From sequence record PP400777: a DNA stretch of 64,000 nt; one strand, 5' to 3'. Every line of letters begins with the position of its first letter. Position 1 is the first letter of the stretch. The position numbers and the translations under genes are program-made. The notes under the pieces are model-generated. The model did not search any database. It saw only the letters and a list, made by a program, of their open reading frames with translations, and was not told where the DNA came from. Source of the DNA: Escherichia phage JM10. Shown here piece after piece: positions 1,927 to 62,152 of the stretch.

Positions 1927-4182
1927 TTAAAGCTTACAAGCAGAACAATCTTCAGCTTTTGGAGTTTCTAGTTCATAGTCGTCAGTACCAGAACCGTCGC
2001 GAGTATTATGATAGTAGAGGTTTTTACCGCCAAAGTACCAGAAGTAAAGCAAATCGTCAAGCATTACAGACATTGGCACTTTACCTTTCTCAAATACTGC
2101 AGGGTCATAGTAAGTATTAGCAGAAGCAGATTGGCACACCCATTTCAACATGATAGCAACTTGGGTCAAATAAGGTTTATTACCTTTCTTAGCAAGTTTC
2201 CACGCATAGTCGTAAAGACTCATGTTATGTTCGATATTAGGAACAACCTGTCGGAAGTTGCCTTCTTTAGATTCTTTAATACTTACTGGACCGCGTGGGG
2301 GCTCAATCCCGTTTGTAGAGTTTGATACTTGACTGCTTGACTCACAAGGCATGAGTGCAGACAACGTTGAGTTACGAATTCCATGTTCTTTGAGTTCAGC
2401 TCGAAGTTCTTCCCAGTCACAGACGTAGTTCGGGGCTGCGATTTGGTCAATCTTTTTATTGTACCAGTCGATAGGTAATTCGCCTCTAGACCATTTAGTG
2501 TCTGAATAATACTCGCAACATCCTTTTTCTTTGGCGAGTTTGATTGATGCTTTGATAAGGCCATATTGCAATCTCTCAAACAATTCATGAGTCAAATCGT
2601 TAGCGTCTTCATATGAAGCAAAGTTGCTTGCTAACCATGCAGCATAGTTCGTCACACCAACACCGAGGTTTCGACGCTTTTTAGCTTTTAAAGCTTCTGG
2701 AACCGGATAATCTTGATAGTCTAACAGGTTATCAAGTGCACGTACTTGTACTTCAGCAAGTTCATTAATTTTATCTTGGTCCTGCCAATCAAAGTTATCT
2801 AACACGAATGCAGACAACGTGCACAACCCGATTTCAGCATCAGGACTATTCACATCATTAGTTGGAATAGCGATTTCACAACATAAGTTACTCTGACGAA
2901 TTGGAGCTTTTTCACGAATAAATGGAGTGTAGTTGTTCGTGTTATCAACGAATTGCGGATAAATTCGAGCAGTACCAGAGCGTTCAGTCATGAACAATTC
3001 AAAGAGTTCTAGTGCTTTGATTCTTTTCTTTCTGATTGTTGGGTCTTTTTCAGCTTTCTCATAAAGCTCACGGAATTTATCTTGATCTTCAAAGAACGAG
3101 TAATACAGTTCGCCTGACATTTCGTGAGGGCTAAATAAAGTAATATAATCATTTTTACCAAGGCGTTCCATCATAAGGTCATTAATCTGAATTCCGTAGT
3201 CCATATGTCGAATACGGTTTTCATCCACGCCTTTGTTATTTTTCAGAACCAATAGGTTCTCTACTTCTAAGTGCCACATTGGATAATACGCTGTAGCAGC
3301 ACCACCACGAATACCGCCTTGAGAACAAGATTTTACTGCAGTTTGGAAATGTTTCCAGAATGGAATAACACCCGTATGTCGAACTTCACCCATACCGATC
3401 TTAGAACCTTCTGCACGAAGCATACCAACGTTGATGCCGATACCGGCTCGTTTAGAAATATATTCAATAATTGATGCTGAAGTTTTGTTAATAGATTTTA
3501 AGGAATCACCGGCTTCAATAACTACACAACTAGAGAACTGGCGAGTTGGAGTACGAGCACCTGCCATAATTGGGGTTGGCAATGAAACTTGATGAGTAGA
3601 AACGGCATCATAAAAACGAATAATATGTTTCAAACGGTCATGAGTTTCGTCTTGGTGTAAGGCCATGCCAATAGCCATGATAGCAAACTGTGGAGTTTCA
3701 TAAATCTTCCCAGTTGTTTTATCTTTAACTAGATATTTTTCTTTAAGCTGCATAGCACCAGCATAAGTCAGGTCAAAGTCTCGTTCATGTTTAATCTGTG
3801 AATCGAGATAAATGATTTCTTCTGCTGAATATTGAGACAACAACTCAGGATCGTATTTGCCTTCATTAACACAGTAAGAAATATGGTCGATAAAAGCAGG
3901 CGGTTCAAACTGCCCATATACATCTTTACGAAGTGCAAACATTAGCCCTTTGGCGGCGACATAATGATAATCAGGTTCTTCGACAGAAATCAAGTTAGCT
4001 GCAACTTTAATACAAATCTTCTGAATATCTTTGGTGCTCATCCCATCGACAAGATGGGTCTTAATTTCTTCGTATAATTCATATGGGTCGATTTGTGTTC
4101 CTTCACATTGCCAAGTTAAGACTTGAATAATTTTCTGTGCATCAAAATTTTGGGATACACCACTGCTCTTAGTTACTTGCAT
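1927..4182 (-). CDS. nrdA: Aerobic ribonucleotide reductase large subunit NrdA
   Basis: 751-aa ORF; class I RNR alpha motifs (ATP-cone N-terminus, NLCCEI active-site region, C-terminal CSACKL); T4 position upstream of nrdB. Confidence 0.93.
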   Translation of the reverse strand: MQVTKSSGVSQNFDAQKIIQVLTWQCEGTQIDPYELYEEIKTHLVDGMSTKDIQKICIKVAANLISVEEPDYHYVAAKGLMFALRKDVYGQFEPPAFIDHISYCVNEGKYDPELLSQYSAEEIIYLDSQIKHERDFDLTYAGAMQLKEKYLVKDKTTGKIYETPQFAIMAIGMALHQDETHDRLKHIIRFYDAVSTHQVSLPTPIMAGARTPTRQFSSCVVIEAGDSLKSINKTSASIIEYISKRAGIGINVGMLRAEGSKIGMGEVRHTGVIPFWKHFQTAVKSCSQGGIRGGAATAYYPMWHLEVENLLVLKNNKGVDENRIRHMDYGIQINDLMMERLGKNDYITLFSPHEMSGELYYSFFEDQDKFRELYEKAEKDPTIRKKRIKALELFELFMTERSGTARIYPQFVDNTNNYTPFIREKAPIRQSNLCCEIAIPTNDVNSPDAEIGLCTLSAFVLDNFDWQDQDKINELAEVQVRALDNLLDYQDYPVPEALKAKKRRNLGVGVTNYAAWLASNFASYEDANDLTHELFERLQYGLIKASIKLAKEKGCCEYYSDTKWSRGELPIDWYNKKIDQIAAPNYVCDWEELRAELKEHGIRNSTLSALMPCESSSQVSNSTNGIEPPRGPVSIKESKEGNFRQVVPNIEHNMSLYDYAWKLAKKGNKPYLTQVAIMLKWVCQSASANTYYDPAVFEKGKVPMSVMLDDLLYFWYFGGKNLYYHNTRDGSGTDDYELETPKAEDCSACKL

Positions 4183-4269: not shown

Positions 4270-4524
4270 TTAATTATCCTCAGCAATAATTTCTTCATAT
4301 TCTTTAGGTGTCAAGACCGTGATATCGAAATAAACCAACGGTTCTTTTTCTATACCGAATCCACCACAGAATTCACGATATTCATAAATTCGTTCATGTG
4401 AATAACAAATGAATCGTTCACCTTTAACTGTGATTTCACTATTTGGTGAAGGGATATCCAGTTCACTTGGATTTTTCATTTCAAAAATTGTGGTGCCATA
4501 TGAATTAATAAAACGTAAAATCAT
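4270..4524 (-). CDS. Hypothetical small protein between td and nrdA
   Basis: 84-aa ORF, compact spacing with neighbours; no recognisable motif. Confidence 0.45.
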   Translation of the reverse strand: MILRFINSYGTTIFEMKNPSELDIPSPNSEITVKGERFICYSHERIYEYREFCGGFGIEKEPLVYFDITVLTPKEYEEIIAEDN

Positions 4525-4525: not shown

Positions 4526-4837
4526 TTATACCGCCATTTTAGCTTTGATAGCTGGATGAGATTCGTAATTTTTAAGAACGAAATCAGAATGTGTCATCGT
4601 TCCAGTAACCCAGTCCATTTGGATTTTTGTAGGCCAATTCTCAAAATTACTAGGCCAATTAATTTCAAGAGAACACAACTCTTTAGGTTCACGACGAAGA
4701 ACTTCTTTGCATTGTTCTACATGATTGCTGTAGATATGTGTGTTGCCGCCTGAGAACACTAAATCACCTGGGATAAGGTTACACATCTTCGCTACAATAT
4801 GCGTCAAGGCAGCGTACGAGGCAATGTTGAACGGTAG
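4526..4837 (-). CDS. td: Thymidylate synthase, exon 2
   Basis: LPFNIASYAALTHIVAKMCNLIPGDLVFSGGNTHIY... continues TS after the exon 1 end ...VDVFLG; exon1+exon2 = 286 aa. Confidence 0.9.
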   Translation of the reverse strand, partial: LPFNIASYAALTHIVAKMCNLIPGDLVFSGGNTHIYSNHVEQCKEVLRREPKELCSLEINWPSNFENWPTKIQMDWVTGTMTHSDFVLKNYESHPAIKAKMAV

Positions 4838-5853
4838 CATTATGTTCAGATAAGGTCGTTAATCTTATCCCGGAATTATATCCAGCTGCATGTCACCATG
4901 CAGAGCAGACTATATCTCCAACTTGTTAAAGCAAGTTGTCTATCGTTTCGAGTCACTTGACCCTACTCCCTAAAGGGATAGTCGTTAGGCATTTATGTAG
5001 AACCAATTCCACTTATCAGATTTTACACGGTAAGTAACTAATCCTGATGAAATTTCAAAATGTCTAGCCGCATCGGCTGCACATTCAAAAATAATCCCAT
5101 CGCATGAAATCTTTTTGATGTTAGCTGGCTTTTTGCCTTTCATCTTTTCAGATAGTTTAGTTTTAGTTTTTTCTGAATGTTTGTGATTAAAGAACGGGTT
5201 ATTTTCACCTGAACGTTTTCGGCACTTTCCACAAGTATCGGCCGAAGATGGTATGCGAACACCGCATTTACAAAACTTGTGGTTTTCTGGATTCCATCGG
5301 CCATTTTTACTTCCGTGTTTACCATAAAGAGCTTTCCGACCGTCAGGACCAAGCTTAAGCATCTTAGCTTTAACAGTTTCAGCTCGTTTCTTAGCAATTT
5401 CTTCTTTTAATGGATGATTTGAAAGCACATCGCCAAAAGACGCATCAGCAATATTATATCCATTAATTTTAGAATTTAGCTCTTTAATCCAAAAATTTTC
5501 TCGTTCAATAATCAAATCTTTCTCATATGTAATTTCTTCCAGTACAGAGCATTCAAAAACATTACCATGTTTATTAAAAGACCTTTGAAATTTTATAGAA
5601 GAGTGAACACCGTTTTCAAGGTCTTTAAAATGTCTCTTCCATCTTTTCTCAAAATCTTTAGCACTTCCAACATACACTTTACCGTTTAAAGTGTTTTTAA
5701 TCTGATAAATTCCGCTTTTCATAAACACCTCTTTTTATATAGAAGTATTTATTAAAGGGTAGTCCTACAATTTAGCACGGGATTGTCTACTAGAGAGGTC
5801 CCCCGTTTAGATAGATTACAAGTATAAGTCACCTTATACCTAGGCCTAAATTA
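4838..5853 (-). mobile_element. Group I intron in td (1016 nt) with I-TevI ORF
   Basis: Intron begins UAAUUUAGGCCUAGGUAUAAGGUGACUUAUACUUGUAAUCUAUCUAAACGGG (T4 td intron-like 5' end), ends ...AAUG before CUACCG; length 1016 nt as in T4. Confidence 0.88.
4985..5722 (-). CDS. I-TevI: GIY-YIG homing endonuclease I-TevI (intron-encoded)
   Basis: MKSGIYQIKNTLNGKVYVGSAKDFEKRWKRH... GIY-YIG domain plus C-terminal zinc finger/NUMOD3-like DNA-binding region; listed ORF trimmed to the MKSG start. Confidence 0.92.
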   Translation of the reverse strand: MKSGIYQIKNTLNGKVYVGSAKDFEKRWKRHFKDLENGVHSSIKFQRSFNKHGNVFECSVLEEITYEKDLIIERENFWIKELNSKINGYNIADASFGDVLSNHPLKEEIAKKRAETVKAKMLKLGPDGRKALYGKHGSKNGRWNPENHKFCKCGVRIPSSADTCGKCRKRSGENNPFFNHKHSEKTKTKLSEKMKGKKPANIKKISCDGIIFECAADAARHFEISSGLVTYRVKSDKWNWFYINA

Positions 5854-7237
<1,384 letters not shown>

Positions 7238-10983: not shown

Positions 10984-11048
10984 ATGAACCTCTTGTTCAG
11001 TTAGTCAACTTTTCTATAGTAACACACTCATTTGAAAGCGTAAACTGG

Positions 11049-11056
11049 TATAAATA
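11049..11056 (+). promoter_or_regulatory. T4-type late promoter (TATAAATA) for gene 34
   Basis: Exact TATAAATA about 30 nt upstream of the gene 34 ATG, with AAGGA Shine-Dalgarno. Confidence 0.7.
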
Positions 11057-11086
11057 AGTATTATTGAAACAATAAAGGAAAAACGA

Positions 11087-14000
11087 ATGGCCGACATCAA
11101 ACGTAAGTTCAGAGCCGAAGACGGTCTGGACGCCGGTGGCGACAAGATTGTTAACGTAGCATTAGCCGACCGTACAGTAGGTACTGATGGCGTAAACGTT
11201 GACTTCCTGGTACAAGAAAACACCGTTCAAGTATATGATTCTACGCGTGGATATAACAAAGGATTTGTTGTTCTTTATGACAACCGTTTATATCAAGCAA
11301 TAAATGATATCGTGTCTCCTTCCGGGGCATTTAACCTTTTACAATGGCGTGCAGTTCGTACTGATGCACAATGGATAACTGTCGCTTCTGGGACTTATCA
11401 ACTTTCTTCAGGTGAATCGATTTCGGTTAACACTGGTGCCGGCAATGATATGGTTTTCACGTTGCCGAATACGCCGGTTGATGGTGATACTGTTGTTTTG
11501 GCTGATATTGGTGGAAGAACCGGGACAGTTAAAGTACAGATTAACGCGTCTGTGCAGAGTATTTTAAACTTTAGAGGTGAACAAGTTCGTACAGTTTTAA
11601 TGACGCGCCCACGTTCACAACTATTGTTTGTGTTTAGTAATCGTTTGTGGCAGATGTATATTATCGATTATGGTAAAGAATCAATCACTGTTACACCTGC
11701 GACACCATATCAAGCACAAGCAAATGATTTTATCGTTCGTCGTTTTACTAGTGCAGCACCAATCAACATTACACTTCCACGTAATGCTAACAATGGTGAT
11801 ATAATCCACCTAGTTGATTTAGATAAATTAAACCCACTGTATCATACAATTGTTAAAACATTTGATGATACAACGTCTATCGGTGAAGTCGGGACTCATA
11901 TTGCCGAAGGCAGAAATGACTCTGACGCGTTTTTTGTTTTTGATGCTGCAAATAGTTTATGGCGTATACGGGAAGGCGACCAGAAATCGCGTCTTCGTAT
12001 TATCCGTGCGGATTCAAATATTCGTCCAAATGAAGAAGTTCTTATTTTTGGCACAAATAACGCTACAACCGGAACTATTAATCTTACGCTGCCTTCTGGA
12101 ATTTTGAGTGGTGACACTGTTAAAATTTCAATGAACTACATGCGTAAAGGCCAAACAGTAAAAATTAAAGCTGCCGAAGGTGATACAATTGCTTCTTCTG
12201 TTGCATTGCTTCAGTTCCCTAAACGTTCTGAATATCCACCTGATGCTCAATGGGTCTCTGTTACTGAACTAGAATTCAATGGCACTACTTCATATGTTCC
12301 TGTATTAGAATTAGCGTATATCGAAGACACCGTTGCTGGTACACGTTATTGGGTTGTTCAACAAAACGTCCCGACTGTAGAACGTGTTGATGCTGGAACT
12401 GATGCTACACGAGCTCGTTTAGGTGTTATTGCTCTTGCTACTCAAGCGCAAGCAAATGTTGATTTAGAGAATACTCCAGCTAAAGAAGTGGCTATTACTC
12501 CTGAAACGTTGGCAAATCGTACAGCAACTGAAACTCGACGCGGTATCGCTAAAATTGCTACAACAGCACAAGTTAATCAGGATTCTACTGCAACATTTGT
12601 GGATGATACTATCGTTACGCCTAAGAAATTAAATGAGCGTACAGCGACTGAAACTCGTCGCGGTTTAGCAGAAATAGCTACTCAAGCAGAGACTGATGCT
12701 GGGACTGATGATACAACTATTATCACTCCTAAGAAATTACAGGCACGTCAGGGTTCAGAAACTCTGTCTGGTATAGTTAAATATGTATCGACTGCTTCAG
12801 CTACTCCTGCTGCTACTCGTGGAACTGCAGGCACTAACGTTTATAATAAAGACACAACTACGTTAACTATTTCGCCTAAAGCTCTCGATCAGTATAAAGC
12901 GACTTCTACTCAACAGGGTGCTACTATTCTGGCTCTTGAAAGTGAAGTAATTGCTGGTCAATCCCAAGCAGGTTATTCTCACGCTGTAGTAACTCCTGAA
13001 ACACTACATAAGAAAACTTCTACTGATGGACGTATTGGTTTAATTGAAATTGCTACGCAAGAAGAAACTAATGCTGGGACTGATTATACACGTGCAGTAA
13101 CGCCTAAGACGTTAAATGATAGGAAAGCTACGGAAGGATTATCCGGCATAGCCGAACTTGCTACGCAAGTTGAATTTGATACTGGAACTGACGATACTCG
13201 TATCTCAACTCCACTGAAAATTAAAACTCATTTTGATTCTTCTGACCGTACCAGTGTTAATTCTGATTCCGGACTTATTGAAGAAGGAACCTTGTGGAAC
13301 CATTATACTCTTGATATTTCTAAAGCAAATGAAACACAACGTGGCACACTTCGCGTAGCGACCCAGGCAGAATCTAATACAGGAACTTTAGATGATGTTC
13401 TTATTACTCCTAAAAAGCTTTTAGGGACTAAGTCCACTGAAACGTCTGAAGGCGTAATTAAGGTTGCTACTCAGGCTGAAACTGTAACAGGAACTTCTGC
13501 TAATACTGCTGTATCTCCAAAAAATTTAAAATGGATTGCGCAGAGTGAACCTACCTGGGCAGCTACTACTGCGATAAGAGGTTTTGTTAAAACTTCATTC
13601 GGTTCTATTACATTTGTTGGCGACGATACTCAAGGTAGTACACAGGACCTGAATCTTTACGAGAAAAATAGTTATGCTATTTCTCCATATGAATTAAATC
13701 GCGTATTAGCAAATTATTTGCCATTGAAAGCTAAAGCTGTAGATAGTAATTTATTAGATGGACTAGATTCATCTCAGTTCATTCGTAGGGATATTGCACA
13801 GACGGTTAATGGTTCACTAACCTTAACCCAACAAACGAATCTGAGTGCCCCTCTTGTATCATCTAGTACTGCTACGTTTGGTGGTTCAGTTTCGGCAAAT
13901 AGTACATTAACTATTTCTAACTCTGGAACAGCAACTCGTCTGATTTTTGAAAAAGGACCTCAAACTGGAACTAACCCAGCGCAGACGATGACTATCAGAG

Positions 14001-14962
14001 TTTGGGGAAATCAGTTTGGCGGCGGATCAGATACATCACGTTCTACTGTATTTGAAGTTGGAGATGAAACATCTAATCACTTTTATTCTCAACGTAATAA
14101 AGCTGGGAATATAACGTTTAGCATTAACGGTACTGTGATGCCGATAAATGTTAACGCTTCAGGTTCTTTGAACGCTAACGGCGTTGCAACATTTGGTAGT
14201 TCAGTTACAGCCAATGGTGAATTCATTAGCAAGTCTGCAAATGCATTTAGAGTAATTAGTGGTGATTACGGATTCTTTATTCGTAATGATGCTGCTAATA
14301 CCTATTTTATGCTCACTGCATCAGGTGATCAGACCGGTGGTTTTAATGGATTACGCCCATTATTAATTAATAATCAATCCGGTCAGATTACAATTGGTGA
14401 AGGCTTAATCGTTGCCAAAGGTGCTACTATAAATTCAGGTGGTTTGACTGTTAACTCGAGAATTCGTTCTCATGGTACTAAAACATCTGATTTATATACC
14501 CGTGCACCAACATCTGATACTGTAGGATTCTGGTCAATAGATATTAACGATTCAGCCACTTATAACCAATTCCCTGGTTATTTTAAAATGGTTGAAAAAA
14601 CTAATGAAGTGACTGGACTTCCATACTTAGAACGTGGCGAAGAAGTTAAATCTCCTGGTACATTGACTCAGTTTGGTAATACACTTGATTCACTTTACCA
14701 AGATTGGATTACTTATCCAACAACTCCAGAAGCACGTACCACTCGCTGGACACGTACATGGCAGAAAACTAAAAATTCTTGGTCAAGTTTTGTTCAGGTA
14801 TTTGATGGAGGTAACCCTCCTCAACCATCTGATATTGGTGCTTTACCATCTGATAATGCTACAATGGGGAATCTTACTATTCGTGATTTCTTAAGGATTG
14901 GTAATGTCCGCATTATTCCAGACCCTGTGAATAAATCTGTTAAATTCGAGTGGATTGAATAA
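11087..14962 (+). CDS. 34: Long tail fibre proximal subunit gp34
   Basis: 1291-aa ORF; repeated TPxxL..R.ATE..RG.A.IATQ.E...GTDD motifs; first gene of the 34-38 late operon. Confidence 0.93.
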   Translation: MADIKRKFRAEDGLDAGGDKIVNVALADRTVGTDGVNVDFLVQENTVQVYDSTRGYNKGFVVLYDNRLYQAINDIVSPSGAFNLLQWRAVRTDAQWITVASGTYQLSSGESISVNTGAGNDMVFTLPNTPVDGDTVVLADIGGRTGTVKVQINASVQSILNFRGEQVRTVLMTRPRSQLLFVFSNRLWQMYIIDYGKESITVTPATPYQAQANDFIVRRFTSAAPINITLPRNANNGDIIHLVDLDKLNPLYHTIVKTFDDTTSIGEVGTHIAEGRNDSDAFFVFDAANSLWRIREGDQKSRLRIIRADSNIRPNEEVLIFGTNNATTGTINLTLPSGILSGDTVKISMNYMRKGQTVKIKAAEGDTIASSVALLQFPKRSEYPPDAQWVSVTELEFNGTTSYVPVLELAYIEDTVAGTRYWVVQQNVPTVERVDAGTDATRARLGVIALATQAQANVDLENTPAKEVAITPETLANRTATETRRGIAKIATTAQVNQDSTATFVDDTIVTPKKLNERTATETRRGLAEIATQAETDAGTDDTTIITPKKLQARQGSETLSGIVKYVSTASATPAATRGTAGTNVYNKDTTTLTISPKALDQYKATSTQQGATILALESEVIAGQSQAGYSHAVVTPETLHKKTSTDGRIGLIEIATQEETNAGTDYTRAVTPKTLNDRKATEGLSGIAELATQVEFDTGTDDTRISTPLKIKTHFDSSDRTSVNSDSGLIEEGTLWNHYTLDISKANETQRGTLRVATQAESNTGTLDDVLITPKKLLGTKSTETSEGVIKVATQAETVTGTSANTAVSPKNLKWIAQSEPTWAATTAIRGFVKTSFGSITFVGDDTQGSTQDLNLYEKNSYAISPYELNRVLANYLPLKAKAVDSNLLDGLDSSQFIRRDIAQTVNGSLTLTQQTNLSAPLVSSSTATFGGSVSANSTLTISNSGTATRLIFEKGPQTGTNPAQTMTIRVWGNQFGGGSDTSRSTVFEVGDETSNHFYSQRNKAGNITFSINGTVMPINVNASGSLNANGVATFGSSVTANGEFISKSANAFRVISGDYGFFIRNDAANTYFMLTASGDQTGGFNGLRPLLINNQSGQITIGEGLIVAKGATINSGGLTVNSRIRSHGTKTSDLYTRAPTSDTVGFWSIDINDSATYNQFPGYFKMVEKTNEVTGLPYLERGEEVKSPGTLTQFGNTLDSLYQDWITYPTTPEARTTRWTRTWQKTKNSWSSFVQVFDGGNPPQPSDIGALPSDNATMGNLTIRDFLRIGNVRIIPDPVNKSVKFEWIE

Positions 14963-14970
14963 GAGGTATT

Positions 14971-16098
14971 ATGGAAAAATTTATGGCTAAGTTTGGACAA
15001 GGATACGTCCAAACGCCATTTTTATCGGAAAGCAATTCAGTACGATTTAAATTAAGCATAGCGGGATCTTGCCCGCTATCAACATCTCCTGCTTATATTA
15101 AGTTCCAGGATAATCCACTTGGGTCCCAGGTTTTTTCTGTTGGATTAAACGTTCGTGTAATAAATCCTACAACAGGTGCAGTAGTTGAATCTAAGTCATA
15201 TAATTTCTCTACTGAAAACGACGCCACGTCAAGTGCATTTGTTACTTACATGGACACATATGCTTCAAATTTTATATTTGCTCTTGTTACTAACGCTAAA
15301 ACAAACTTTCCTCCTGAAGTTCTCGCATGGTTTACCAAAGCTGGGAGTTCTGCTATTCCATTAGCTCAACAAGTTTTAAATATAGTGGACATTTCTTATT
15401 CTGCATTTTATATTTCTGGTAAGAACGCTATAGCACTAGAACATATTAAGTATAGTAATAAGAAAACTTCAACCGACTATAGTACACCACTTGATGTTGT
15501 GTACGACACTATCGATGATATTGGTGCTACCGGCTTCCCTAGTCGTACGTACGAATCGACAGACACATTTTTATCTGCTGTTGGAGGTACTAATAACGAA
15601 ATTAAAAGGATGCCTACAACATCCCTTATTACACCTCTCGCTGGGTATAAATTGAAGCCTGGAGATTTCCTTTATATGAAATTCCAACTAATGGCAGATG
15701 CTGATTTGTTAGCACAAGGGACGACACGACTTTCTATTCGTTTCTTTAAATCTCCTTCTACTTCACCTATTTCATTTAAGGATATAAACTTTGATGGGGG
15801 TGCAGGTGAATGGAAGATATATGAAGACTACATAGAAATTCCTGCTGGTGCTGACGGGTTCACGATTTATTGTTATCGTACAGCTCCAGTCGGGCAAGGC
15901 GGATTAAGAAACGTTATATTCACTGAAGTGTCATGTAATGGAAGCGTTTCAAAACCTGCTGAGTTTGGTATAAATGGTATTCGTGTAAATTATGTTTCAG
16001 AATCTTTAAGTGCCCCAGACATAATGACATTACCTACTCAATCTTCAACTGATACTGGTAAGGTATTTGGACAAGAATTTAAAGAAGCATCAGAATAA
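14971..16098 (+). CDS. 35: Long tail fibre hinge connector gp35
   Basis: 375-aa ORF immediately after gene 34. Confidence 0.85.
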   Translation: MEKFMAKFGQGYVQTPFLSESNSVRFKLSIAGSCPLSTSPAYIKFQDNPLGSQVFSVGLNVRVINPTTGAVVESKSYNFSTENDATSSAFVTYMDTYASNFIFALVTNAKTNFPPEVLAWFTKAGSSAIPLAQQVLNIVDISYSAFYISGKNAIALEHIKYSNKKTSTDYSTPLDVVYDTIDDIGATGFPSRTYESTDTFLSAVGGTNNEIKRMPTTSLITPLAGYKLKPGDFLYMKFQLMADADLLAQGTTRLSIRFFKSPSTSPISFKDINFDGGAGEWKIYEDYIEIPAGADGFTIYCYRTAPVGQGGLRNVIFTEVSCNGSVSKPAEFGINGIRVNYVSESLSAPDIMTLPTQSSTDTGKVFGQEFKEASE

Positions 16099-16103
16099 AT
16101 TTA

Positions 16104-16128
16104 GGGAGACTTCGGTCTCCCATTTTTG
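16104..16128 (+). terminator. Rho-independent terminator after gene 35
   Basis: GGGAGAC-UUCG-GUCUCCC hairpin followed by AUUUUUG. Confidence 0.75.
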
Positions 16129-16136
16129 TATAAATA
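16129..16136 (+). promoter_or_regulatory. T4-type late promoter (TATAAATA) for gene 36
   Basis: Exact TATAAATA about 25 nt upstream of the gene 36 ATG, AAGGAG Shine-Dalgarno. Confidence 0.7.
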
Positions 16137-16160
16137 TGGTATACATATAAGGAGACAACT

Positions 16161-16823
16161 ATGGCCGATTTAAAAGCTGGTAGTACAACTGGCGGTGCTG
16201 TTATATGGCATCAAGGTAATTTCCCTTTAATGCCAGCAGGTGATGACGTCCTGTATAAAACGTTTAAACTCTATTCAGAATATAATAAACCACAAGCTGC
16301 TGATAACGATTTCGTTTCTAAAGCTAATGGTGGTACTTACGCTGCAACTGTTCGATTTAACGGAGGCGTACATGTTCCTACTGTAGGTAGTAGTCAACAG
16401 TGTGGTGTTTATCCAGGTAACGGTGATGCAGCTACTTTTGATATGGCAAATATTGACATCGTTTCGTGGAATGGTATTGGTTTTAAGTCATCACAAGGTT
16501 CAGCAGACCGAACTGTTGTTATTAACGCTCGTACCGGTGATATTAATACGAAAGGCGTTGTATCTGCTTCAGGACAAGTAAGAAGCGATATGACTGCTCC
16601 GGTTGCAGCAAATGATCTCACAAGAAAAGATTATGTTGATGGACGAATAAATATTGTTACGGATAACGCAAATTCCCGTGTATTGCGTAAAGGCGATACA
16701 ATGACTGGTACTTTAACAGCACCAAACTTTTTCTCACAGAATCCGGCGTCTGAGGCTAATCATGTTCCTCGTTTCGACCAGATTGTAATTAAAGATTCTG
16801 TTCAAGATTTCGGCTATTATTAA
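16161..16823 (+). CDS. 36: Long tail fibre distal connector gp36
   Basis: 220-aa ORF in the T4 position. Confidence 0.85.
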
Positions 16824-16831
16824 GAGGACTT

Positions 16832-19800
16832 ATGGCTACTTTAAAACAAATACAATTTAAAAGAAGCAAAACCGCAGGTGCACGTCCTGCTGCTTCAGTA
16901 TTAGCCGAAGGTGAATTGGCTATAAACTTAAAAGATAGAACAATTTTTACTAAAGATGATACAGGAAATATCATTGATCTAGGTATTGCTAAAGGCGGTC
17001 AAATTGATGGAAATGTAACTATTGATGGAACTTTACGCGTCAATGGACCAATAAACAACTTTGGAAATTTTTCTACAAGTGGTACTATTACGGCAAGTAA
17101 TATTGTTTCTGCTACAGTATTCAGATCAACATCCGGTTCATTTTATACAAGAGCAATAAATGATACTGCAAAGGCCCATCTTTGGTTTGAAAATACAAAT
17201 GGCTCAGAACGTGGCGTTTTATATTCAAACCCGCAGTCTGAAAATGAAGGCGTAATTACAATGCGTGTTCGTCAAGGAACCGCTGCGGAAGCTCAAAATT
17301 CAGAATTTCATTTCATTTCTACTGATGGCGGTATCTTCCAGGCACGCAAATTAACTGCTTTAACTTCTATTAGTACACCAACTATTAGTGTTAATTTAAT
17401 TAATCATGATTCTAAATCATTTGGACAATATGATTCACAATCTTTGGTTAACTATGTTTATCCTGGAACTGGTGAAACGAATGGTGTAAACTATCTTCGT
17501 AAAGTTTGCGCTACGTCCGGTGGTACAATTTATCATGAAATTGTTACTGCACAAAAAGGCCTGTCTGATGAAGTTTCTTGGTGGACTGGTAATACACCAT
17601 TATTTAAACTATATGGTATTCGTAGCGACGGCAGACTGATTATCCGCAATAGCCTGGCCATCGGTACTGTGACGGGAGGGTTTCCGTCAAGCGATTATGG
17701 CAATGTTGAGGCACTAGGAAATATATTTCTTGCTTTAGGTGATAACGGGACAGGTTTACGCTATCGAAAAACCGGGGTATTTGATTTCGTTGGTTCTGGA
17801 CTATCTGTCGCATCTATTACACCTGACAGTTTCCGTAGTACTCGTAAAGGTATATTTGGTCGTTCCGAGGACCAAGGCGCAACTTGGATAATGCCTGGGA
17901 CCAACGCCGCGTTTTTAACGGTTCAAACACAGGCTGATGAAAACACTGCTGGAGACGGTCAAACCCATATTGGATATAATTCTGGCGGGAAAATGTCCCA
18001 CTATTTCCGTGGTAAAGGCCAAACTAATATTAATACTCAAGAAGGCATGGAAGTTAACCCGGGTATTTTGAAATTGGTAACTGGCTCTAATAACGTACAG
18101 TTTTATGCTAACGGAACAGTATCTTCAATACAAAGAATTAAATTTGATAATGGATTAGTTCTTACTGGTGCTAGACCCGATGGTATTCAACTTGATGCTC
18201 CTACAACAACAGATGGCACTAAAACTATATTGTGGGCCGGCGGTACTCGTGAGGGTCAGAATAAAAGTTATGTATCTATTAAAGCATGGGGTAATTCATT
18301 TAACGCATCTGGCGATCGTAATCGTGAAACGGTTTTTGAAGTAGCTGATGGACAAGGATATTATTTCTACGCTCAACGTACTAATCCTGCGTCAGGTCAA
18401 ACAGTAGGTCCGGTTAACTTTAAATTTAACGGAACTGTCGAAACAGGCCATATCATAGGCCTTGGTAATATAAGTGCCTCCGGTACAGGTTCTTTTGGTG
18501 GCAATGTTACTATGTCTAACGGTTTGTTTGTCCAAGGTGGTTCTTCTATTACTGGACAAGTTAAAATCGGCGGAACAGCTGATGCATTAAGAATTTGGAA
18601 TGCTGAATACGGGGCTATTTTCCGTCGTTCTGAAGATAAACTTTATATTATTCCAACTCCACAAAATGCTGGTGAATCAGGTGGTATTTCTAATTTACGT
18701 CCATTTACCATGACTCTTAGTACTGGTAAAATGGAATTTAAACATGATGTTGGACTTGGTGATAACGGCTCCGGTGGAAGCATATTATTTGTAGATAACA
18801 CTAACAAAGCCACTACTAATAACGGTCGTTTATACGTTAATATGACAAGTGATGCTATAGTGCTTAATGCTCCTACACAAGAAACATCTAACTTTATCCA
18901 AGGACGCAAAGCTAACGTCACTAAATGGTATGTTGGTATTGGCGACAGTGGTGATTCTGTTCGTATGCATAGCTATGCATATTCCCACGGCTTGGTATTA
19001 AGTGCTAACTCCGTTGATATTACTAAACCGTTAAAAGTTGGTAATGCTCAATTCGGTACTGATGGTAATATCACCGGTGGTTCTGGTAACTTTGCCAACT
19101 TGAACACCACAATAAATAACCTTAAGACGGATATCGTCTCAAGTTATCCAATTGGCGCTCCGATTCCTTGGCCAACGGATACTCCTCCTGACGGTTACGC
19201 TATTATGGAAGGTCAGACTTTTGATAAGTCTGCATACCCAAAATTGGCTATGGCTTACCCATCTGGCGCTCTGCCTGATATGCGTGGTCAAACTATCAAG
19301 GGTAAACCATCTGGGCGTGCTGTATTAAGTACAGAAGCCGATGGTGTTAAGTCACATAGCCATAGTGCAAGTGCATCAAGCACAGATTTGGGTACTAAAA
19401 ACACATCAAGTTTTGATTATGGTACTAAAACCTCTTCAAGCTTTGATTATGGTACGAAGACTAGCAATACAACAGGTAACCATAACCATACAGTAAGCGG
19501 TACTACTGGTGCAGCAGGTAACCACCAGCACTCACAAACCGGTCCAAGGGGTCCTAATAATCAACCAACAGGAATATTTCCTAATGGATCTACTCTAATT
19601 AGTGGAACCCAGGTTGTTGGTTTTGGCCTAAGCAACGGTGTCGTGCCTGGTTCAAGCCAATATATTGCAAAGTCATCGACAGAAGGTAACCATACACACT
19701 CTTGGTCTGGTACTACTAGCTCTACGGGTAACCATGCTCATACTGTAGGTATTGGTGCTCACACTCACACGGTAGGTATTGGTGCTCATTCTCATACTGT

Positions 19801-19903
19801 TGCAATTGGTTCCCATGGACATACAATAACTGTAAATGCCACAGGAAATACAGAAAACACAGTTAAAAACGTTGCTTTTAACTATATCGTTCGTTTAGCA
19901 TAA
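16832..19903 (+). CDS. 37: Long tail fibre distal subunit gp37 (receptor-binding)
   Basis: 1023-aa ORF; C-terminal Gly/Ser-rich variable region with repeated HxH boxes ([40 protein letters not shown]), typical of T4-type gp37 tips. Confidence 0.93.
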
Positions 19904-19933
19904 GGAGAAGGGACTTCTGTCCCTTTTTATAAT
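19902..19933 (+). promoter_or_regulatory. Structured (split) ribosome-binding site of gene 38
   Basis: AAGGAG lies about 27 nt upstream of the ATG with hairpin AGGGAC-UUCU-GUCCCU between; folding would bring the SD to normal spacing, as described for T4 gene 38. Confidence 0.6.
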
Positions 19934-20485
19934 ATGAAACTCTATCACTATTATTTTGACACTAAAGAATTTTACAAAGAAGAAAATTATAAACCATTAA
20001 AAGGCGTAGGATTTCCGGCTCATTCGACACCAAAAAAACCTTTAGACCCTAAAGAAGGCTATGCTGTTGTATTTGATGAACGCGAACAAGAATGGGTATA
20101 TGTTGAAGACCATCGTGGAAAAACAGTATGGACTTATGATAAGCAAAAAATTGTTATTGACACTCCAGGTGCTCTTCAAAATGTTACTACAGAAGAACCC
20201 GGTGAATTTGACATTTGGACCGACGACGGGTGGAAGGAAGATGAAGCATATAAACGCGTAGTTCAACGTGATAAGAAAATTCATGAACTCTATAAATTAT
20301 TCAGTGTTTTAAGTTCTCTTATCGACGCAGAGGTTGCTAATAGAGAAGAAAAACGAAAATTTAAAGAGCTCAAAAAATTCTTTGCCCTTTTAGAAAAACA
20401 TGAACATCTTGGCGGCGAATTCCCTAAATTCCCTGACCTTGAAAATAAATCTATTATCAAAGCGATTATAAATATCTTTAAGTAA
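19934..20485 (+). CDS. 38: Tail fibre assembly chaperone gp38
   Basis: 183-aa ORF following gene 37, same length as T4 gp38. Confidence 0.8.
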   Translation: MKLYHYYFDTKEFYKEENYKPLKGVGFPAHSTPKKPLDPKEGYAVVFDEREQEWVYVEDHRGKTVWTYDKQKIVIDTPGALQNVTTEEPGEFDIWTDDGWKEDEAYKRVVQRDKKIHELYKLFSVLSSLIDAEVANREEKRKFKELKKFFALLEKHEHLGGEFPKFPDLENKSIIKAIINIFK

Positions 20486-20494
20486 GGAGGTATT

Positions 20495-21154
20495 ATGGCA
20501 ACACCAAAAGTGTCATTTTCGCCTGGTGATATTCTATTTGGGTTGCTAGATCGTATTTTCAAAGATAACGCTACTGGAAAGGTTTTAATGTCCCGAGTAG
20601 CGGTAATTATTCTTTTGTTCCTAATGGCACTAATATGGTACAAAGGAAGTATTTTGCTGGATTATTATGTAAGAGCTAAGTATGATACTTATACTGAAAT
20701 AATCCAAAAAGAACGAGCTTTACGTTTTGAATCTGCGGCTCTAGAACAACTGCAAATAGTTCATATCTCATCTGGTGCAGATTTTAGTGCTGTGTATTCT
20801 TTCAGACCTAAAAACTTAAATTATTTTGTCGACCTTATAGCTTATGAAGGCAAACTACCTAGCACAATTTCTGAAAAGTCCCTTGGCGGATTCCCAGTGG
20901 ATAAAACGGCCAATGAATATATAATTCATTTAAGTGGCCGTCATTTCTCATCTAAATCAGAATTTGCATTTTTGCCTACAAAATCTAAGACTGCCGAACT
21001 TTCTTATATGTATAGTTGTCCATACTTTAATTTGGATAACATCTATGCTGGAACTGTGACGATGTATTGGTATAAGGGGAGTAATATACTTGAGGAAGAT
21101 CGCTTAGCGGCTATATGCAACCAAGCGATCCGAATACTAGGAAGGGCTAAATAA
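20495..21154 (+). CDS. t: Holin T
   Basis: MATPKVSFSPGDILFGLLDRIFKDNATGKVLMSRVAVIILLF... single N-terminal TM segment and large periplasmic domain; 219 aa. Confidence 0.93.
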   Translation: MATPKVSFSPGDILFGLLDRIFKDNATGKVLMSRVAVIILLFLMALIWYKGSILLDYYVRAKYDTYTEIIQKERALRFESAALEQLQIVHISSGADFSAVYSFRPKNLNYFVDLIAYEGKLPSTISEKSLGGFPVDKTANEYIIHLSGRHFSSKSEFAFLPTKSKTAELSYMYSCPYFNLDNIYAGTVTMYWYKGSNILEEDRLAAICNQAIRILGRAK

Positions 21155-22491: not shown

Positions 22492-22952
22492 TAGTAAAGG
22501 TCCTCAGAGTAAAGTTCTTTTTCATTACCACCACGTTCAATACGTACTTGGCCAGCGTAAGTTGCAATAATCATTGCTTCTTCACGTGTCCAATAATTAC
22601 TATATTGGTCAATAAACCCTTGGTCATCATCACAAACTTGTTGAGTAACTAATTGAGGTTTAACTACATCTAAAACTTCTGCCATATCTTTAGAATAATG
22701 ACGAACTCCAGGAATAATAAGAGTTCGTCCATCTTTTAATTTAAAACGGTTGGCTGCACAGACAATTCGTCGTTGATACTTTTGGTTTTCATCCCAATAC
22801 AAAGTCTGCCAACAGATTTCAGGAACTTCATCTAAAACATTTTGTTCTGTATATTCACCGCCGTAAGAAGCTAATTTAGCAGCCAGACTTTCCGGAGTCT
22901 CACGCGACAAAGCTTTATCTAACAGAGCTAAACGTTCTTTAAAAGTTTTCAT
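22491..22952 (-). CDS. Hypothetical protein (153 aa)
   Basis: ORF in the compact early gene cluster. Confidence 0.5.
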
Positions 22953-23278
22953 TTAAACCATCCTTTAATACGTTGCCAAATAGATTTTTGTGCTTGTTTA
23001 TTTACACCAATCGAACGAATAACCGGTTGTGACTGCTGATATTCTTTATAATCTTCTTTATAGATTTCGTAAGCGGCATCAACAAATGAACTGATCGCTG
23101 CCATGTAGTTTTTACGAAGGCCAAATGGCGCGTCATTATTTTCACGAATAACCGTATATTGGCCTGCTTTAATCTTTACAATTGTCCCTAAATAAGCCCC
23201 GTGGTACCAAATATCCCATCCTTCCTGAGTAGGTTCTGCACATTTACGAAGTTCGTTAATAATATTCAGCTTATTCAT
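22949..23278 (-). CDS. Hypothetical protein (109 aa)
   Basis: ORF with ATGA-type overlap to the downstream gene. Confidence 0.5.
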
Positions 23279-31991: not shown

Positions 31992-33810
31992 AGGACATCC
32001 ATTCTTTACGAAGTTCTGAATCATCACCCATCAACATTTCAAAGAGTTCTTTCCAATTTTCAGGAAGTTTAACTACGTCGTACACAGGGTTCTGAATCAT
32101 TTCACGATATTCTGACTTTTCAAGGGAGCCCAATCCCTTGATGTATCGAATACTATGCTTAGGCAGTGTATCTTTAACTTCTTCATACTCAGCTACAGTA
32201 TAAAACCATTTTTGAGTTTTGCCAATTTGTGCAATAATTACAGGCGTTTTAACAAAGCGAATACGTCCTTGTTCGAACAATTCAGGCCAATTACTAAAGA
32301 AAGCAAGCAAAGCCGGATAAATACTTCCAAGACCGTCATGATCGGCATCGGTCATAATTGCAATATTACGATAGTTCGTATTCTCTGCCTTTTCACCAAG
32401 AATAAGACCTGTGATAGCACAGATATCAAAGAGCTCTTTGTTCTTCATCATATCAGCATATGACATACCCCAGCTATTCATCACCTTACCACGTAACGGG
32501 AATCCGCCGTGTAGTTCACGGTCACGAACATCAATGAGATAACCAATTGCAGAATCACCTTCTGTTAAGAACAATGTCGTATCTGCATCTTTACCACATT
32601 GGTTAGCTTTAATATGCTTATGAACCTTAGCTTTAGTTGCCTTTTTAGCTGCTTTAGTTTCTGCAGCCTTTTCTGCCGCCAATTTACGAGCTAATGCTGC
32701 TTCAATTATAGGCATTAAAACTGCTTCAGAATTCAAAATATTTTTTGCCAATTTTTTTGTATCTAATTTAATATGCGTCCGAATTTCGCCATAAGGACTT
32801 GTTAAACGCTCTTTTGTTTGGGAATCAAAACGAAGGTTCTTCATTCCACGAACGAACATTAAGAGAGTGAGACATTCCTTGATGCGCGCTTTAGTCACGT
32901 CGATTTTATATTTGCGTTTAATAGCCGGAATTAATTCTTCGCAAATGTCGTCCATCACACATTCAATGTGATGACCACCGTTTTTGGTATGGATGTTATT
33001 CACATAAGTTAAATGACGGAAGCCATCTGGTGACCGTCCAATGGCAATAGAGCATCCGTCTTGTTCTTGAATGATGGTCTCTTCATCAAATTGTTTAGCA
33101 AACTTCTTAAAGTTACCTTGAATCTTTTTGCCATTAAATTTAAATTCAATACCAGGATAAACAACCGCCAATGTTTGGAGACGGTCTATAGTAATATCTT
33201 GGTATATTTTTTCAAATTGATTCATTTCAAAATGTGAGAAATCAGGAATAAACTCGACCTTAGTACCGTTGTTTTTAGACGGCTTAGATTTCCAAGAAAT
33301 ATTATCAGCGTTATTAGAACAATTAACGGTCAATTCATTTTTACCATCTGAAGTAGTGCCAACAAAAGAGACAGAAAAAATATTTGTTAATGAAGAACCG
33401 ACACCGTTTTGTCCACCCGTAACACGTTCTTTGTCGTCACCAAAGTTGCCACCGGCTTTTGTACGTGTCCACGCCGCAACTGGTCCTGGAATTTCTTCTC
33501 CTTCAGGAGTAATAACTGTTTCTTGAGGAATACCTCGACCATTATCTTCAACAGTCACTTTATTAGAATTTAAATCAATACTAACGGAAATTTTATTAGC
33601 ATATTTGAAATTGGTTCGAATAGCTTCGTCTACTGAGTTGTCAATAATTTCATCAATTAATTTGAGAACACCTGCAACATATTTAACCTTTTTAAATTCA
33701 CCGAATAGGAAACGTTCTTGTTCTTCATTGGCAACACTTCCAATATACATGCCAGGACGCTTCAAACAATGCTCTTTATCAGATAGCATTTCAATTTTAT
33801 TATCAATCAT
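31990..33810 (-). CDS. 39: DNA topoisomerase II large subunit, uninterrupted gp39+gp60 fusion (GyrB-like)
   Basis: Start taken at ATG (MIDNKIEMLSDKEHCLKRPGMYIGS; the listed ORF begins 5 codons earlier at a TTG); about 606 aa, i.e. includes the segment that T4 encodes separately as gene 60. Confidence 0.88.
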   Translation of the reverse strand: MIDNKIEMLSDKEHCLKRPGMYIGSVANEEQERFLFGEFKKVKYVAGVLKLIDEIIDNSVDEAIRTNFKYANKISVSIDLNSNKVTVEDNGRGIPQETVITPEGEEIPGPVAAWTRTKAGGNFGDDKERVTGGQNGVGSSLTNIFSVSFVGTTSDGKNELTVNCSNNADNISWKSKPSKNNGTKVEFIPDFSHFEMNQFEKIYQDITIDRLQTLAVVYPGIEFKFNGKKIQGNFKKFAKQFDEETIIQEQDGCSIAIGRSPDGFRHLTYVNNIHTKNGGHHIECVMDDICEELIPAIKRKYKIDVTKARIKECLTLLMFVRGMKNLRFDSQTKERLTSPYGEIRTHIKLDTKKLAKNILNSEAVLMPIIEAALARKLAAEKAAETKAAKKATKAKVHKHIKANQCGKDADTTLFLTEGDSAIGYLIDVRDRELHGGFPLRGKVMNSWGMSYADMMKNKELFDICAITGLILGEKAENTNYRNIAIMTDADHDGLGSIYPALLAFFSNWPELFEQGRIRFVKTPVIIAQIGKTQKWFYTVAEYEEVKDTLPKHSIRYIKGLGSLEKSEYREMIQNPVYDVVKLPENWKELFEMLMGDDSELRKEWMS

Positions 33811-59440: not shown

Positions 59441-62152
59441 TCAAAAATCGAACATATCGAACAGAGATGCTTTCTTCTCGTAATCGAGTTTCGCTGCTGA
59501 TGTGAATCCTTCAAGTGGTTTAATAAATGTCTTCTCAAGGAGAACAGTGTAGTCCATCCAATGAAGTACGTCGTCTTTAATTAAATCTGTGATTTCAGTG
59601 CCAGAAGGCCATGCGATACATTTATCACCGAATGGGTTTCCTTCACGTAAAGGCAGAACATATACTTTTTCACCTTCTACAACTTGCGGTGCATCGATAT
59701 TACCTTTGATAGCCCGGTTATACGTCAGAATTCCACGAATATGGAACGGGCATTTGGGACCAGGGAATCCACCGACATCATATTTAGCAATGTTATTCGC
59801 AGAAGATACCGACGCGATGCTAATATAATTCAATTGACGGAATTCTTTTTCAAACTCTTTAAAATATTCTTGTAATGATTCTTCACCTTCTTGAAGCATA
59901 CGACGAATACATTCTTTAAGAGCTTTCTGTACTGCTTTAGGGGTCGAAGATTTCTGAGTCTCTAGACCCATGATTTTGAGTTTAGGCTCAGCGTAACGAG
60001 TGCCTTCCATATCCCACACGTTTAATGCATAACGTTTCTTACCAGTCCAGAATCCACCAATACCTTTAGAACCGAGCGGAGGACCAGCGATAGCTTCTCG
60101 GTCCATGAACATTAAGTGTTGTTTATTGTTCATGTATTCACACATTTCACGGAAACCTCTATCAATAGCAGGTTCCATACGTTCACGAGCGAACTTATCT
60201 AAGAAGTCTACCCAATGGTTGGTATCACGGAATTTAGATTCACCAACCTTATCGATAATTTTATCAGCAGATACGTAAATAGAGTCTGTATCACCATAAA
60301 GAACGAAAGCTTCACCTTCTGTACCACAAACTTCATTCAGATATTCATTAACTTTACGTTCAATCCACTGTAAAGCCATTTGCCCGAATGTTGTGATTGC
60401 AGTAGCATTACGCAAATCATAATAACGGAACCAAACGTTTCCAAGTGCACCATAAAGCGAGTTGATGAGCAATTTACGGTTAATCTGTGCAGTCATACCT
60501 GCAACTTCAGTACGTTGAGCTCTAAACAACATTTCATTAAGAGATTTAGCAGACAACTTTTTAATCTTTTCTTTAATCTCAACGCTGAAGTCGAAACGAT
60601 AATCAACATCTAACGGTTCGTCAACAGAAAGATTAGGATTATGCAATGCCTCTTTAATTATTTCACCATTACGTTGAGCTGCAAGCATGTAACCTTTATG
60701 TTCTTTACGTTGATTAAAGACCTTAGTGATTTCAGTTGGAACTACACCATCACGGTCTTTATAATACATCATGCCGTTAGGAGAACAACTGTACACATCT
60801 GAAGGACGTTCAGCGATTGCGTTAATATAATCATGCAGTGGAGCTACTTTAAACGTTCCTGCTATTGTTTCCGGGCTAATATTCACTTGGCGAATAATAC
60901 TTGGATACAGAGATGTAAGGTCGAAACTCATTACATATTTGTATCGATTTGGAATAGGTTCCTTAACAAAAGCGCCAGGATAAGGTTGAACTGGGTGAGA
61001 ACGACCTTGTGGAATCACCTTGTTCTGTTCTTTAAGGCTATTAAAAATAATAGCATCCCATGTTTTAATTGGGCTAAACACAGATTGAATCTGTATCTTA
61101 GCATAATAACCCATGTCCAAACTCAAGTTGATGAACTGACGCTTAGCATCAATTTGCAATACACGATACACGTCGATAATGTTATAAGAAATATATCGTT
61201 GGTGATTGCTTTCACGAAGCTTAGAAATAGGGCCGTCATATTTCAGTTTACCAACGTTCAATTCAAATTCTGAAATGTAATCCAGAGAATACGACGGTTG
61301 ATTGGTAAAAGAGAATTTTTTGTAAAGGTCAATGTAATCAAGAACAGAGATACCGAACAATGTAATGATTTCACGAGAACCATACATGTTTTCGATAACT
61401 TTAACACGAGTTTTACGATGTGGTGATAAACGTTTCGCAGTAGATTCGCCAAAAATATTCTTGATTCGGTTATACACATATGGAATATCAAATGACTCAA
61501 CGTTCCATCCAGTCAAAATGACAGGAGTTTTCTGTTGCCAGAAGTTGAGATATTCCATCAACAATTCTTTTTCGTTATCGAACGGCATATAAATGATTTT
61601 ATCAATAATTTCGGATGGAACTTCATCACCGCCTTGTTCTTGAAGCTTAGCCGCAATTTCGATAGACCATTCTTCTACATTACCATACGGAGAATTCAAT
61701 AGATCAAATACGTAGAACCTGTCGTCAATTGAGTCATAATGGGTGATAGCATCAATCGGATGTTTTGCTTGTGACGGCTCAGGGAACCCATCCGGAGATG
61801 TTACTTCGATGTCGAAGTTAGCCACACGAATTTTTGTATGGTCGTATTTGATTTCATAGTTATAAGTGTCAGACAAATACGCCAATTTGAAATCGTCCAT
61901 GCCAAGTGCTTCAAGTCCGATATCTTCCATGCGTTTAATCCATTGGGAGGCATCACGCATATTAGCGAACAACTTACGAGTACACGGCTTACCGTAGATA
62001 TCGAAATATTTCGTAGCCTGACTTTCTGGACAATGAGCAAACAGTGATGGTTTATATTCTACTTCACGAGTACGTTCACGGCCATTAGAATCGATGTAAC
62101 GTTCAAAAATTGAATCACCAATCTGTTCAACCGTTAAGTAAAATTCTTTCAT
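59441..62152 (-). CDS. 43: DNA polymerase gp43 (family B)
   Basis: 903 aa; exo motifs FDIEV and YNIIDV, pol motifs SLYPSII and YGDTDS; N-terminal sequence matches what I recall of the RB69 polymerase. Confidence 0.97.
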   Translation of the reverse strand: MKEFYLTVEQIGDSIFERYIDSNGRERTREVEYKPSLFAHCPESQATKYFDIYGKPCTRKLFANMRDASQWIKRMEDIGLEALGMDDFKLAYLSDTYNYEIKYDHTKIRVANFDIEVTSPDGFPEPSQAKHPIDAITHYDSIDDRFYVFDLLNSPYGNVEEWSIEIAAKLQEQGGDEVPSEIIDKIIYMPFDNEKELLMEYLNFWQQKTPVILTGWNVESFDIPYVYNRIKNIFGESTAKRLSPHRKTRVKVIENMYGSREIITLFGISVLDYIDLYKKFSFTNQPSYSLDYISEFELNVGKLKYDGPISKLRESNHQRYISYNIIDVYRVLQIDAKRQFINLSLDMGYYAKIQIQSVFSPIKTWDAIIFNSLKEQNKVIPQGRSHPVQPYPGAFVKEPIPNRYKYVMSFDLTSLYPSIIRQVNISPETIAGTFKVAPLHDYINAIAERPSDVYSCSPNGMMYYKDRDGVVPTEITKVFNQRKEHKGYMLAAQRNGEIIKEALHNPNLSVDEPLDVDYRFDFSVEIKEKIKKLSAKSLNEMLFRAQRTEVAGMTAQINRKLLINSLYGALGNVWFRYYDLRNATAITTFGQMALQWIERKVNEYLNEVCGTEGEAFVLYGDTDSIYVSADKIIDKVGESKFRDTNHWVDFLDKFARERMEPAIDRGFREMCEYMNNKQHLMFMDREAIAGPPLGSKGIGGFWTGKKRYALNVWDMEGTRYAEPKLKIMGLETQKSSTPKAVQKALKECIRRMLQEGEESLQEYFKEFEKEFRQLNYISIASVSSANNIAKYDVGGFPGPKCPFHIRGILTYNRAIKGNIDAPQVVEGEKVYVLPLREGNPFGDKCIAWPSGTEITDLIKDDVLHWMDYTVLLEKTFIKPLEGFTSAAKLDYEKKASLFDMFDF

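Follow-up and report, generated by a model that had tools for sequence, protein, structure and literature searches.

What does an intron with the site and length of the T4 td intron signify in a phage whose polymerase resembles that of RB69, given that RB69 itself is intron-less at td? Such a locus could record a recent mosaic of T4 and RB69 DNA, or it could carry an established intron able to act as a donor in homing. We addressed this question for Escherichia phage JM10 (record PP400777) in a window of 64,000 nucleotides, by which we mean the whole stretch of DNA analysed. The results leave us highly confident that the locus holds a well-known mobile element, the td group I intron of subgroup IA2 and its GIY-YIG endonuclease I-TevI, in the TuIa-type variant and in a Mosigvirus td gene. 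This intron is predicted to self-splice and home as its T4 counterpart does, and belongs to an older, separate lineage that was not recently received from T4.

In a base-by-base profile, the 64-kb window was 94.0% identical to RB69 over 89.3% of its length and 75.8% identical to T4 over 64.2%. The sequence-only reading from which this analysis started had described the replication and modification genes as RB69-like, and they are: the polymerase gene (gp43; 59441..62152) encodes 903 aa, as in RB69, and is 98–99% identical to it, and the hydroxymethylcytosine-arabinosylation gene block (~52.8–59.4 kb) is 94–99.8% identical to that of RB69, with the T4 counterpart absent. Mosigvirus hydroxymethylcytosine is arabinosylated, not glucosylated as in T4 (PMC8594841). 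The best matches to the whole window in the phage collection were Mosigvirus genomes with 96–98% identity, none of them identical to it. To judge by these matches, JM10 is an RB69-like phage of the genus Mosigvirus. The statement that RB69 lacks these introns was also correct, since both td (861 nt) and nrdB are uninterrupted in the RB69 RefSeq genome (NC_004928). A 2010 review lists RB69 without any homing endonuclease gene (PMC2993671); the JM10 window has at least three. RB69, the reference of the genus, is atypical in this lack, and the generalisation that RB69-like phages lack introns is unsafe.

Alignment with the intron-less td of RB69 and with T4 td showed that the JM10 gene is interrupted at 4838..5853 of the minus strand (the strand of all td-locus features given below) by a 1016-nt group I intron of the TuIa/Mosigvirus type, located at the T4 insertion site. 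The interval initially proposed for the td intron with I-TevI was exact to the base. The intron separates exon 1 (5854..6402, 549 nt) from exon 2 (4526..4837, 312 nt). When the exons were aligned separately, exon 1 was 95.8% identical to RB69 and 79.4% to T4, and exon 2 was 98.4% and 68.6% identical, respectively; the combined values are 96.8% and 75.5%. Exon 1 ends with ...TTCTTAGGT and exon 2 begins with CTACCG, while the intron extends from TAATTTAGGCC... to ...CATAATG. The joined exons form an 861-nt reading frame of 286 aa that is collinear with RB69 and T4 Td, and the product has the same length as RB69 Td, with two amino-acid differences. It is identical to the uninterrupted Td of the intron-less Mosigviruses PaulHMueller, mar005p1, and MM02, which confirms the splice junctions independently.

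The gene neighbourhood on the minus strand consists of nrdA (1927-4182), nrdA.2 (4270-4524), the td pieces with the intron ORF, frd (6399-6986), and gene 32. Between nrdA.2 and frd lie, in order, a 104-aa C-terminal td fragment, a 245-aa ORF, and a 183-aa N-terminal td fragment. The RB69 locus (NC_004928) has the same neighbours (nrdA.2, td, frd) and represents the intron-less allele with the presumed homing site; its junction reads GGC|CTG, whereas that of JM10 reads GGT|CTA. Automatic annotation presents the JM10 locus as two 'thymidylate synthase' genes and a 'homing endonuclease'; the td pieces should be joined.

The ribozyme sequence is divided between the two ends of the intron. The 5′ part (5760..5853), assigned from the fold of the ORF-deleted core, contains the guide sequence (intron 9-15), P2, and the 5′ strands of P3, P4, P5, and P6. 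The 3′ part (4838..5004), assigned from T4 identity and the fold, contains P6′, P7, P7.1, P7.2, P3′, P8, P7′, P9, P9.1, P9.2, and the terminal G. The minimum free energy fold of the 275-nt ORF-deleted core recovered P1, P2, P3, P4, P5, P6, P7.1, P7.2, P8, P9, P9.1, and P9.2 (z = −3.0). The strands of P7, which is pseudoknotted with P3, are complementary (GACUA/UAGUC) and invariant among the td introns compared, and at every variable helix position across 10 td introns the pairing is kept. In P1, exon CUUAGGU pairs with intron GCCUAGG (9-15), forming a U-1·G9 wobble at the splice site; the intron 3′ end reads ...AAUG. By its site, P1, and core helices, the element is a T-even group I intron of subgroup IA2, and it is predicted to self-splice. 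A search of the whole 64-kb window against Rfam at the gathering threshold gave no match. In E-value mode, Intron_gpI (RF00028) scored 36.2 bits (gathering score 50; E = 3.7e-7) with only the 3′ half properly aligned; the score falls short because a 738-nt ORF separates the two ribozyme halves.

The RNA parts of the intron are better conserved relative to T4 than the I-TevI ORF is: identity is 93% in the 5′ non-ORF segment (intron 1-131), 87.5% in the ORF (132-869), and 98.6% (146/148) in the 3′ ribozyme part (870-1016). Helices P3, P4, P7, P7.1, and P7.2 are identical in both phages, as is the late promoter/operator segment. The guide sequence differs (GCCUAGG in JM10, GCCUGAG in T4), and so does exon position −4, which is A in JM10 and G in T4. 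Together, these differences give the JM10 P1 one extra Watson-Crick pair. In full, JM10 has −4 A:U12, U-5:A13, and U-6·G14 at positions where T4 has G·U, U·G, and U:A. We considered and rejected the reading of these differences as double compensatory changes; with the strands in register, there are three changes, each on one side of its pair and each keeping the pairing, and they do not represent covariation. The only true covariation among the td introns compared was seen in Klebsiella phage HMGUkp2 (PV683292), where P8 changes from CAACUUG/CAAGUUG to CAACUUC/GAAGUUG, a double compensatory replacement of G:C by C:G. The HMGUkp2 td intron is also the most divergent of those examined (93% identity to the JM10 window, with exons ~72% identical).

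The 245-aa ORF (4985..5722) is looped out of P6, with its 3′ end overlapping the ribozyme core, and was identified as the I-TevI homing endonuclease gene by Pfam, PDB, and T4 comparison. It starts at the ATG at 5722; the program-made ORF list extends the start to a GTG at 5728. The protein contains GIY-YIG (residues 3-90; PF01541, E = 8e-16), I-TevI_ZnF (149-179; PF22635, E = 1.8e-17), NUMOD3 (171-191; PF07460), and I-TevI_DNA-bd (192-242; PF20987, E = 3.3e-31) domains. Residues 1-97 align with the crystallised T4 fragment in PDB 1mk0/1ln0, and residues 130-245 with that in 1i3j. Y6, Y17, R27, H40, E75, and N90, which we take to be the catalytic residues of I-TevI, can all be read from the sequence, and the four cysteines of the zinc finger are present in HKFCKCGVRIPSSADTCGKC. 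Both the domain order and the catalytic residues are the same as in T4 I-TevI, to which the JM10 protein is 88.2% identical (216/245). Of the 29 substitutions, 19 fall in residues 93-191, the linker, zinc finger, and minor-groove helix being the parts most affected. A dN/dS of 0.126 relative to T4 indicates purifying selection. By these measures, the I-TevI ORF is intact and selectively constrained. The exact protein is present in NCBI as XAO14073.1 from Escherichia phage JM10, the entry returned by a protein-cluster search; a search for contigs that encode it gave no match.

The control region upstream of the ORF also resembles that of T4. In T4, intron positions 95-117 hold the late promoter together with the operator for I-TevI (PMC2988022); the corresponding JM10 segment (5737..5759) is identical and would serve as the I-TevI late promoter and putative autorepression operator. 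A hairpin at intron 108-127 (5727..5746; ACUUCU...AGAGGU) is predicted from the T4 comparison to sequester the I-TevI ribosome-binding site. Its stem is identical to that of T4, with two changes in the loop (intron 118, 119), and TuIa variants of this hairpin have been noted before (PMC2988022, Figure 5 legend). Autorepression through an operator overlapping the late promoter, together with the ribosome-binding-site hairpin, is known for T4 I-TevI (PMC2988022).

We found the same intron in many other phages. Its identity to the td introns of VEc20, BEU50, AV110, and NRG-P0074 is 99.8%, to that of TuIa 99.7%, and to that of T4 90.2%; 21 records contain the intron at ≥99% identity. A query composed of 100 nt of exon 1 and 100 nt of intron detected the Mosigvirus-type exon 1/intron junction at ≥96.5% identity in 21 records, 19 of which are complete or near-complete genomes. 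Junction carriers include AV110, NRG-P0074, G2469, a20, and AV109; most match the rest of the window at the Mosigvirus level, and a20, JM17, and LF82-4 are classified as Mosigvirus. Carrier records annotate a homing endonuclease between two thymidylate synthase fragments. The td junction is carried by ~19 of roughly 140–155 Mosigvirus genomes (~13%, about one in eight). Of 18 Mosigvirus td-frd loci sampled at even spacing, 4 had the intron and 14 lacked it, which is compatible with that share. The intron is therefore not unusual for an RB69-like phage: the observation that the sequence-only reading had named as refuting it, RB69-like genomes sharing both intron and site, is supplied by these ~19 genomes.

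The comparison with individual carriers is equally close. In TuIa (AY262157) and in Mosigvirus genomes such as a20, AV110, NRG-P0074, G2469, and AV109/114/115/116/118, the intron is inserted at the same site, is 1016 nt long, and is 99.5–99.8% identical at the nucleotide level; the flanking exons are of the Mosigvirus type, as in JM10, and I-TevI differs by 0–2 residues. Relative to these introns, that of JM10 has two or three private single-base differences, e.g. at intron positions 324 and 528. By these comparisons, the td intron is polymorphic in Mosigvirus, where it forms a TuIa-type lineage separate from that of T4. The td intron with I-TevI is among the best-studied mobile introns. The TuIa variant has been in GenBank since its entry from a 2004 study, the T-even intron survey by Sandegren and Sjoberg (J Biol Chem; cited in PMC2993671), to which AY262157 belongs and whose title speaks of 'recent transfer of old introns'. 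Both the intron and its TuIa-type variant were already known and are annotated in many Mosigvirus genomes, and the JM10 intron is real but ordinary.

In two of the 14 intron-less loci in the sample, td and frd are set apart by a small, unrelated ORF. In SF (MH359124, 1332-1679) and also in NHEP36, an extra 115-aa hypothetical ORF, found in neither the JM10 window nor RB69, separates the uninterrupted td from frd. The 362-nt extra td-frd length in these two phages was considered as an ORF-less intron remnant and rejected, being accounted for by the 115-aa ORF. A search of IMG/VR viral contigs for exact intron-plus and intron-minus Mosigvirus td junctions returned 0 matches for each and is uninformative on environmental frequency.

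If the JM10 element works as the T4 intron does (PMC2988022), its RNA would fold into the P1–P9.2 ribozyme and self-splice from the td pre-mRNA, giving the normal 286-aa enzyme. I-TevI would be made late in infection from its own late promoter and autorepressed via the overlapping operator, with its translation gated by the hairpin over the ribosome-binding site, again as in T4 (PMC2988022). During a mixed infection with an intron-less relative, e.g. RB69, the T4 model would have I-TevI attach to the uninterrupted td in the region of the insertion site and cleave at CAACG, 23–25 nt upstream of that site. The intron-bearing copy would serve as template for repairing the break, and the intron would be copied in together with short stretches of flanking exon. 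Through such events, an older separate intron lineage would now be moving within Mosigvirus and occasionally into Tequatrovirus. The putative cleavage site can be read directly from the sequence: CAACG at 5876..5880 (exon −27 to −23) conforms to the 5′-CNNNG-3′ motif required by I-TevI (PMC2988022). The intron-less td genes of RB69 and SF keep CAACG at the same distance (−27..−23). The RB69-type target differs from that of T4 at positions −21..−19, −1, +3, +9, +12, and +15.

A trace of such movement is found in the Tequatrovirus VEc20 (Escherichia phage, MN022785), which has a td intron 99.8% identical to that of JM10 next to an exon 1 that is 95.6% identical to T4. Its first ~47 nt of exon 2 (+1..+47) have 0/47 differences to the JM10 window and 10 to Tequatrovirus JE01; from +48 to +130, VEc20 is identical to JE01 and has 20 differences to the JM10 window. 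The tract is informative on the exon-2 side, and the exon-1 side is uninformative. We read it as a co-conversion signature, which indicates homing from a Mosigvirus-type donor into a Tequatrovirus. The suggestion that JM10 is an intron-bearing relative and a possible homing donor is supported by its intact, constrained endonuclease and by the Mosigvirus-type exon-2 tract of VEc20. The CAACG motif kept by RB69 and SF is a further indirect line of support for JM10 as a plausible donor.

The td locus of Salmonella phage Lv5cm (MZ150757), classified as Tequatrovirus, is chimeric. Exon 1 (93.8% identical to the JM10 window) and the intron from position 1 to ~500 are of the Mosigvirus type, and the remaining intron and exon 2 are of the Tequatrovirus type, which places a recombination junction inside the I-TevI gene. 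The Mosigviruses JM17 and LF82-4 have patchwork td intron variants that are 95.5–96% identical to the JM10 window. The VEc20 and Lv5cm cases extend the 2004 theme of recent transfer of old introns. The 2010 review regarded the T-even genome types as isolated from one another genetically and saw 'no convincing evidence' that introns had moved between them (PMC2993671); the sequences of these two phages appear to update that statement modestly.

The same data allowed us to weigh other accounts of the locus. One is that the element is decaying: the intron still splices, I-TevI is inactive or heading for loss, and the phage is no homing donor. Elements of this kind normally pass through a stage in which the endonuclease is lost, as the truncated I-TevIII of T4 illustrates; the presence of the intron in only ~13% of Mosigvirus genomes and the clustering of 19 of the 29 I-TevI substitutions in residues 93-191 could be taken in the same sense. 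Decay is nevertheless very unlikely for a full-length ORF that retains all catalytic and zinc-binding residues at a dN/dS of 0.126, behind a conserved promoter/operator and hairpin stem. Moreover, identity of ≥99.7% among many independent isolates and the VEc20 co-conversion tract indicate recent mobility.

Another account is that the intron arrived recently by homing, from T4 itself or from one of its close relatives, which would make td a fresh T4/RB69 mosaic. The sequence-only reading had described the intron and I-TevI as near-identical in layout to T4, and so they are in gene, length, insertion site, and ORF position and size, including an ORF looped from P6 with its 3′ end inside the core. 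This likeness, the lack of the intron in RB69, and the T4-like tracts elsewhere in the window (nrdB intron, ~97%; gene 34/35, 89–94%) would all suit such a transfer. At the level of sequence, however, the likeness does not hold, as identity to T4 is only 90% for the intron and, at the amino-acid level, 88% for I-TevI. In a rough comparison with T4, dS was 0.52 for I-TevI and 1.25 for td exon 1; the lower value for I-TevI suggests that the intron lineages split after the phage genera, but not recently. No T4-type exon tract was seen beside the td intron; on either side, RB69-type sequence continues to the junction. Just two bases, −4 A and +3 A, are specific to the junctions; they are not T4-type markers and recur in other intron-bearing Mosigvirus-type alleles. 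Finally, a variant that is 99.7–99.8% identical occurs in many Mosigvirus genomes and TuIa. Taken together, these observations make a recent T4 origin highly improbable, and the proposal of a mosaic genome does not apply at td. Although T-even lysates are sometimes mixed and several window segments are absent from RB69, a chimeric contig assembled from a T4-like and RB69-like lysate has a negligible probability, given that the same exon-intron junctions occur in ~19 independently sequenced genomes, that the intron sequence is not that of T4, and that the reading frame and splice junctions are exact, with a spliced protein equal to known Td proteins.

Within the preferred reading of an older, separate td intron lineage, a further step is conceivable. 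The TuIa/Mosigvirus-type intron could be a functionally diverged lineage whose I-TevI has adapted to the RB69-type td target, and which provides a portable patch of homology for DNA exchange between Mosigvirus and Tequatrovirus. We put this forward tentatively and consider it more doubtful than probable. If it were true, VEc20 and Lv5cm would be natural products of Mosigvirus-Tequatrovirus traffic. Gene flow between these two T-even genera has left a natural record at td, which could be mined systematically from the ~260 td introns sequenced so far.

The proposal of a mosaic genome did prove apt for other parts of the window: to judge by their identity profiles, the nrdB intron, a free-standing endonuclease gene, and the tail-fibre module are real mosaic segments. 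The nrdB gene (minus strand) contains a group I intron of ~1.09 kb, with exon 1 at 1873-1200, the intron at ~1199-107, and exon 2 at 106-1, where it is cut by the window edge. The intron ORF (243-1052) codes for an HNH endonuclease at its full length of 269 aa (PHROG 'intron-like DNA endonuclease', E = 2e-193); I-TevIII of T4 is a truncated copy of this protein. The 503 nt at the 3′ end, exon 2 among them, are 96.8% identical to T4, and exon 2 is only 88.7% identical to the intron-less nrdB of RB69; the flanking exon looks co-converted from a T-even-type donor.

The free-standing homing endonuclease gene (33803-34486, minus strand) is located upstream of gene 39 and encodes 227 aa with NUMOD3 motifs (PHROG HNH/homing endonuclease). 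RB69 does not have this gene, and only ~9 of ~160 Mosigvirus records do (HX01, AV109/114/115/116/118, G2285, CEV1). In the adjacent 5′ part of gene 39 (32500-33800), identity to RB69 falls to 71–84%, as would be expected from endonuclease-driven co-conversion.

The tail-fibre module (11000-21000, plus strand; genes 34-38) is mosaic as well. Positions 14001-15000 are 89–94% identical to T4 and 65–69% identical to RB69, and the region at 17000-20500, which includes gene 37 and a 183-aa gene 38 of T4 chaperone size, has almost no match to RB69 and 70–88% identity to T4. From this pattern, receptor binding is predicted to be arranged as in T4, on a backbone that is RB69-like. Lastly, the arn/motA-upstream region at 22501-23000 is 80% identical to RB69 and 85% identical to T4, between flanks that are 97–98% identical to RB69, and may be another small exchanged patch.
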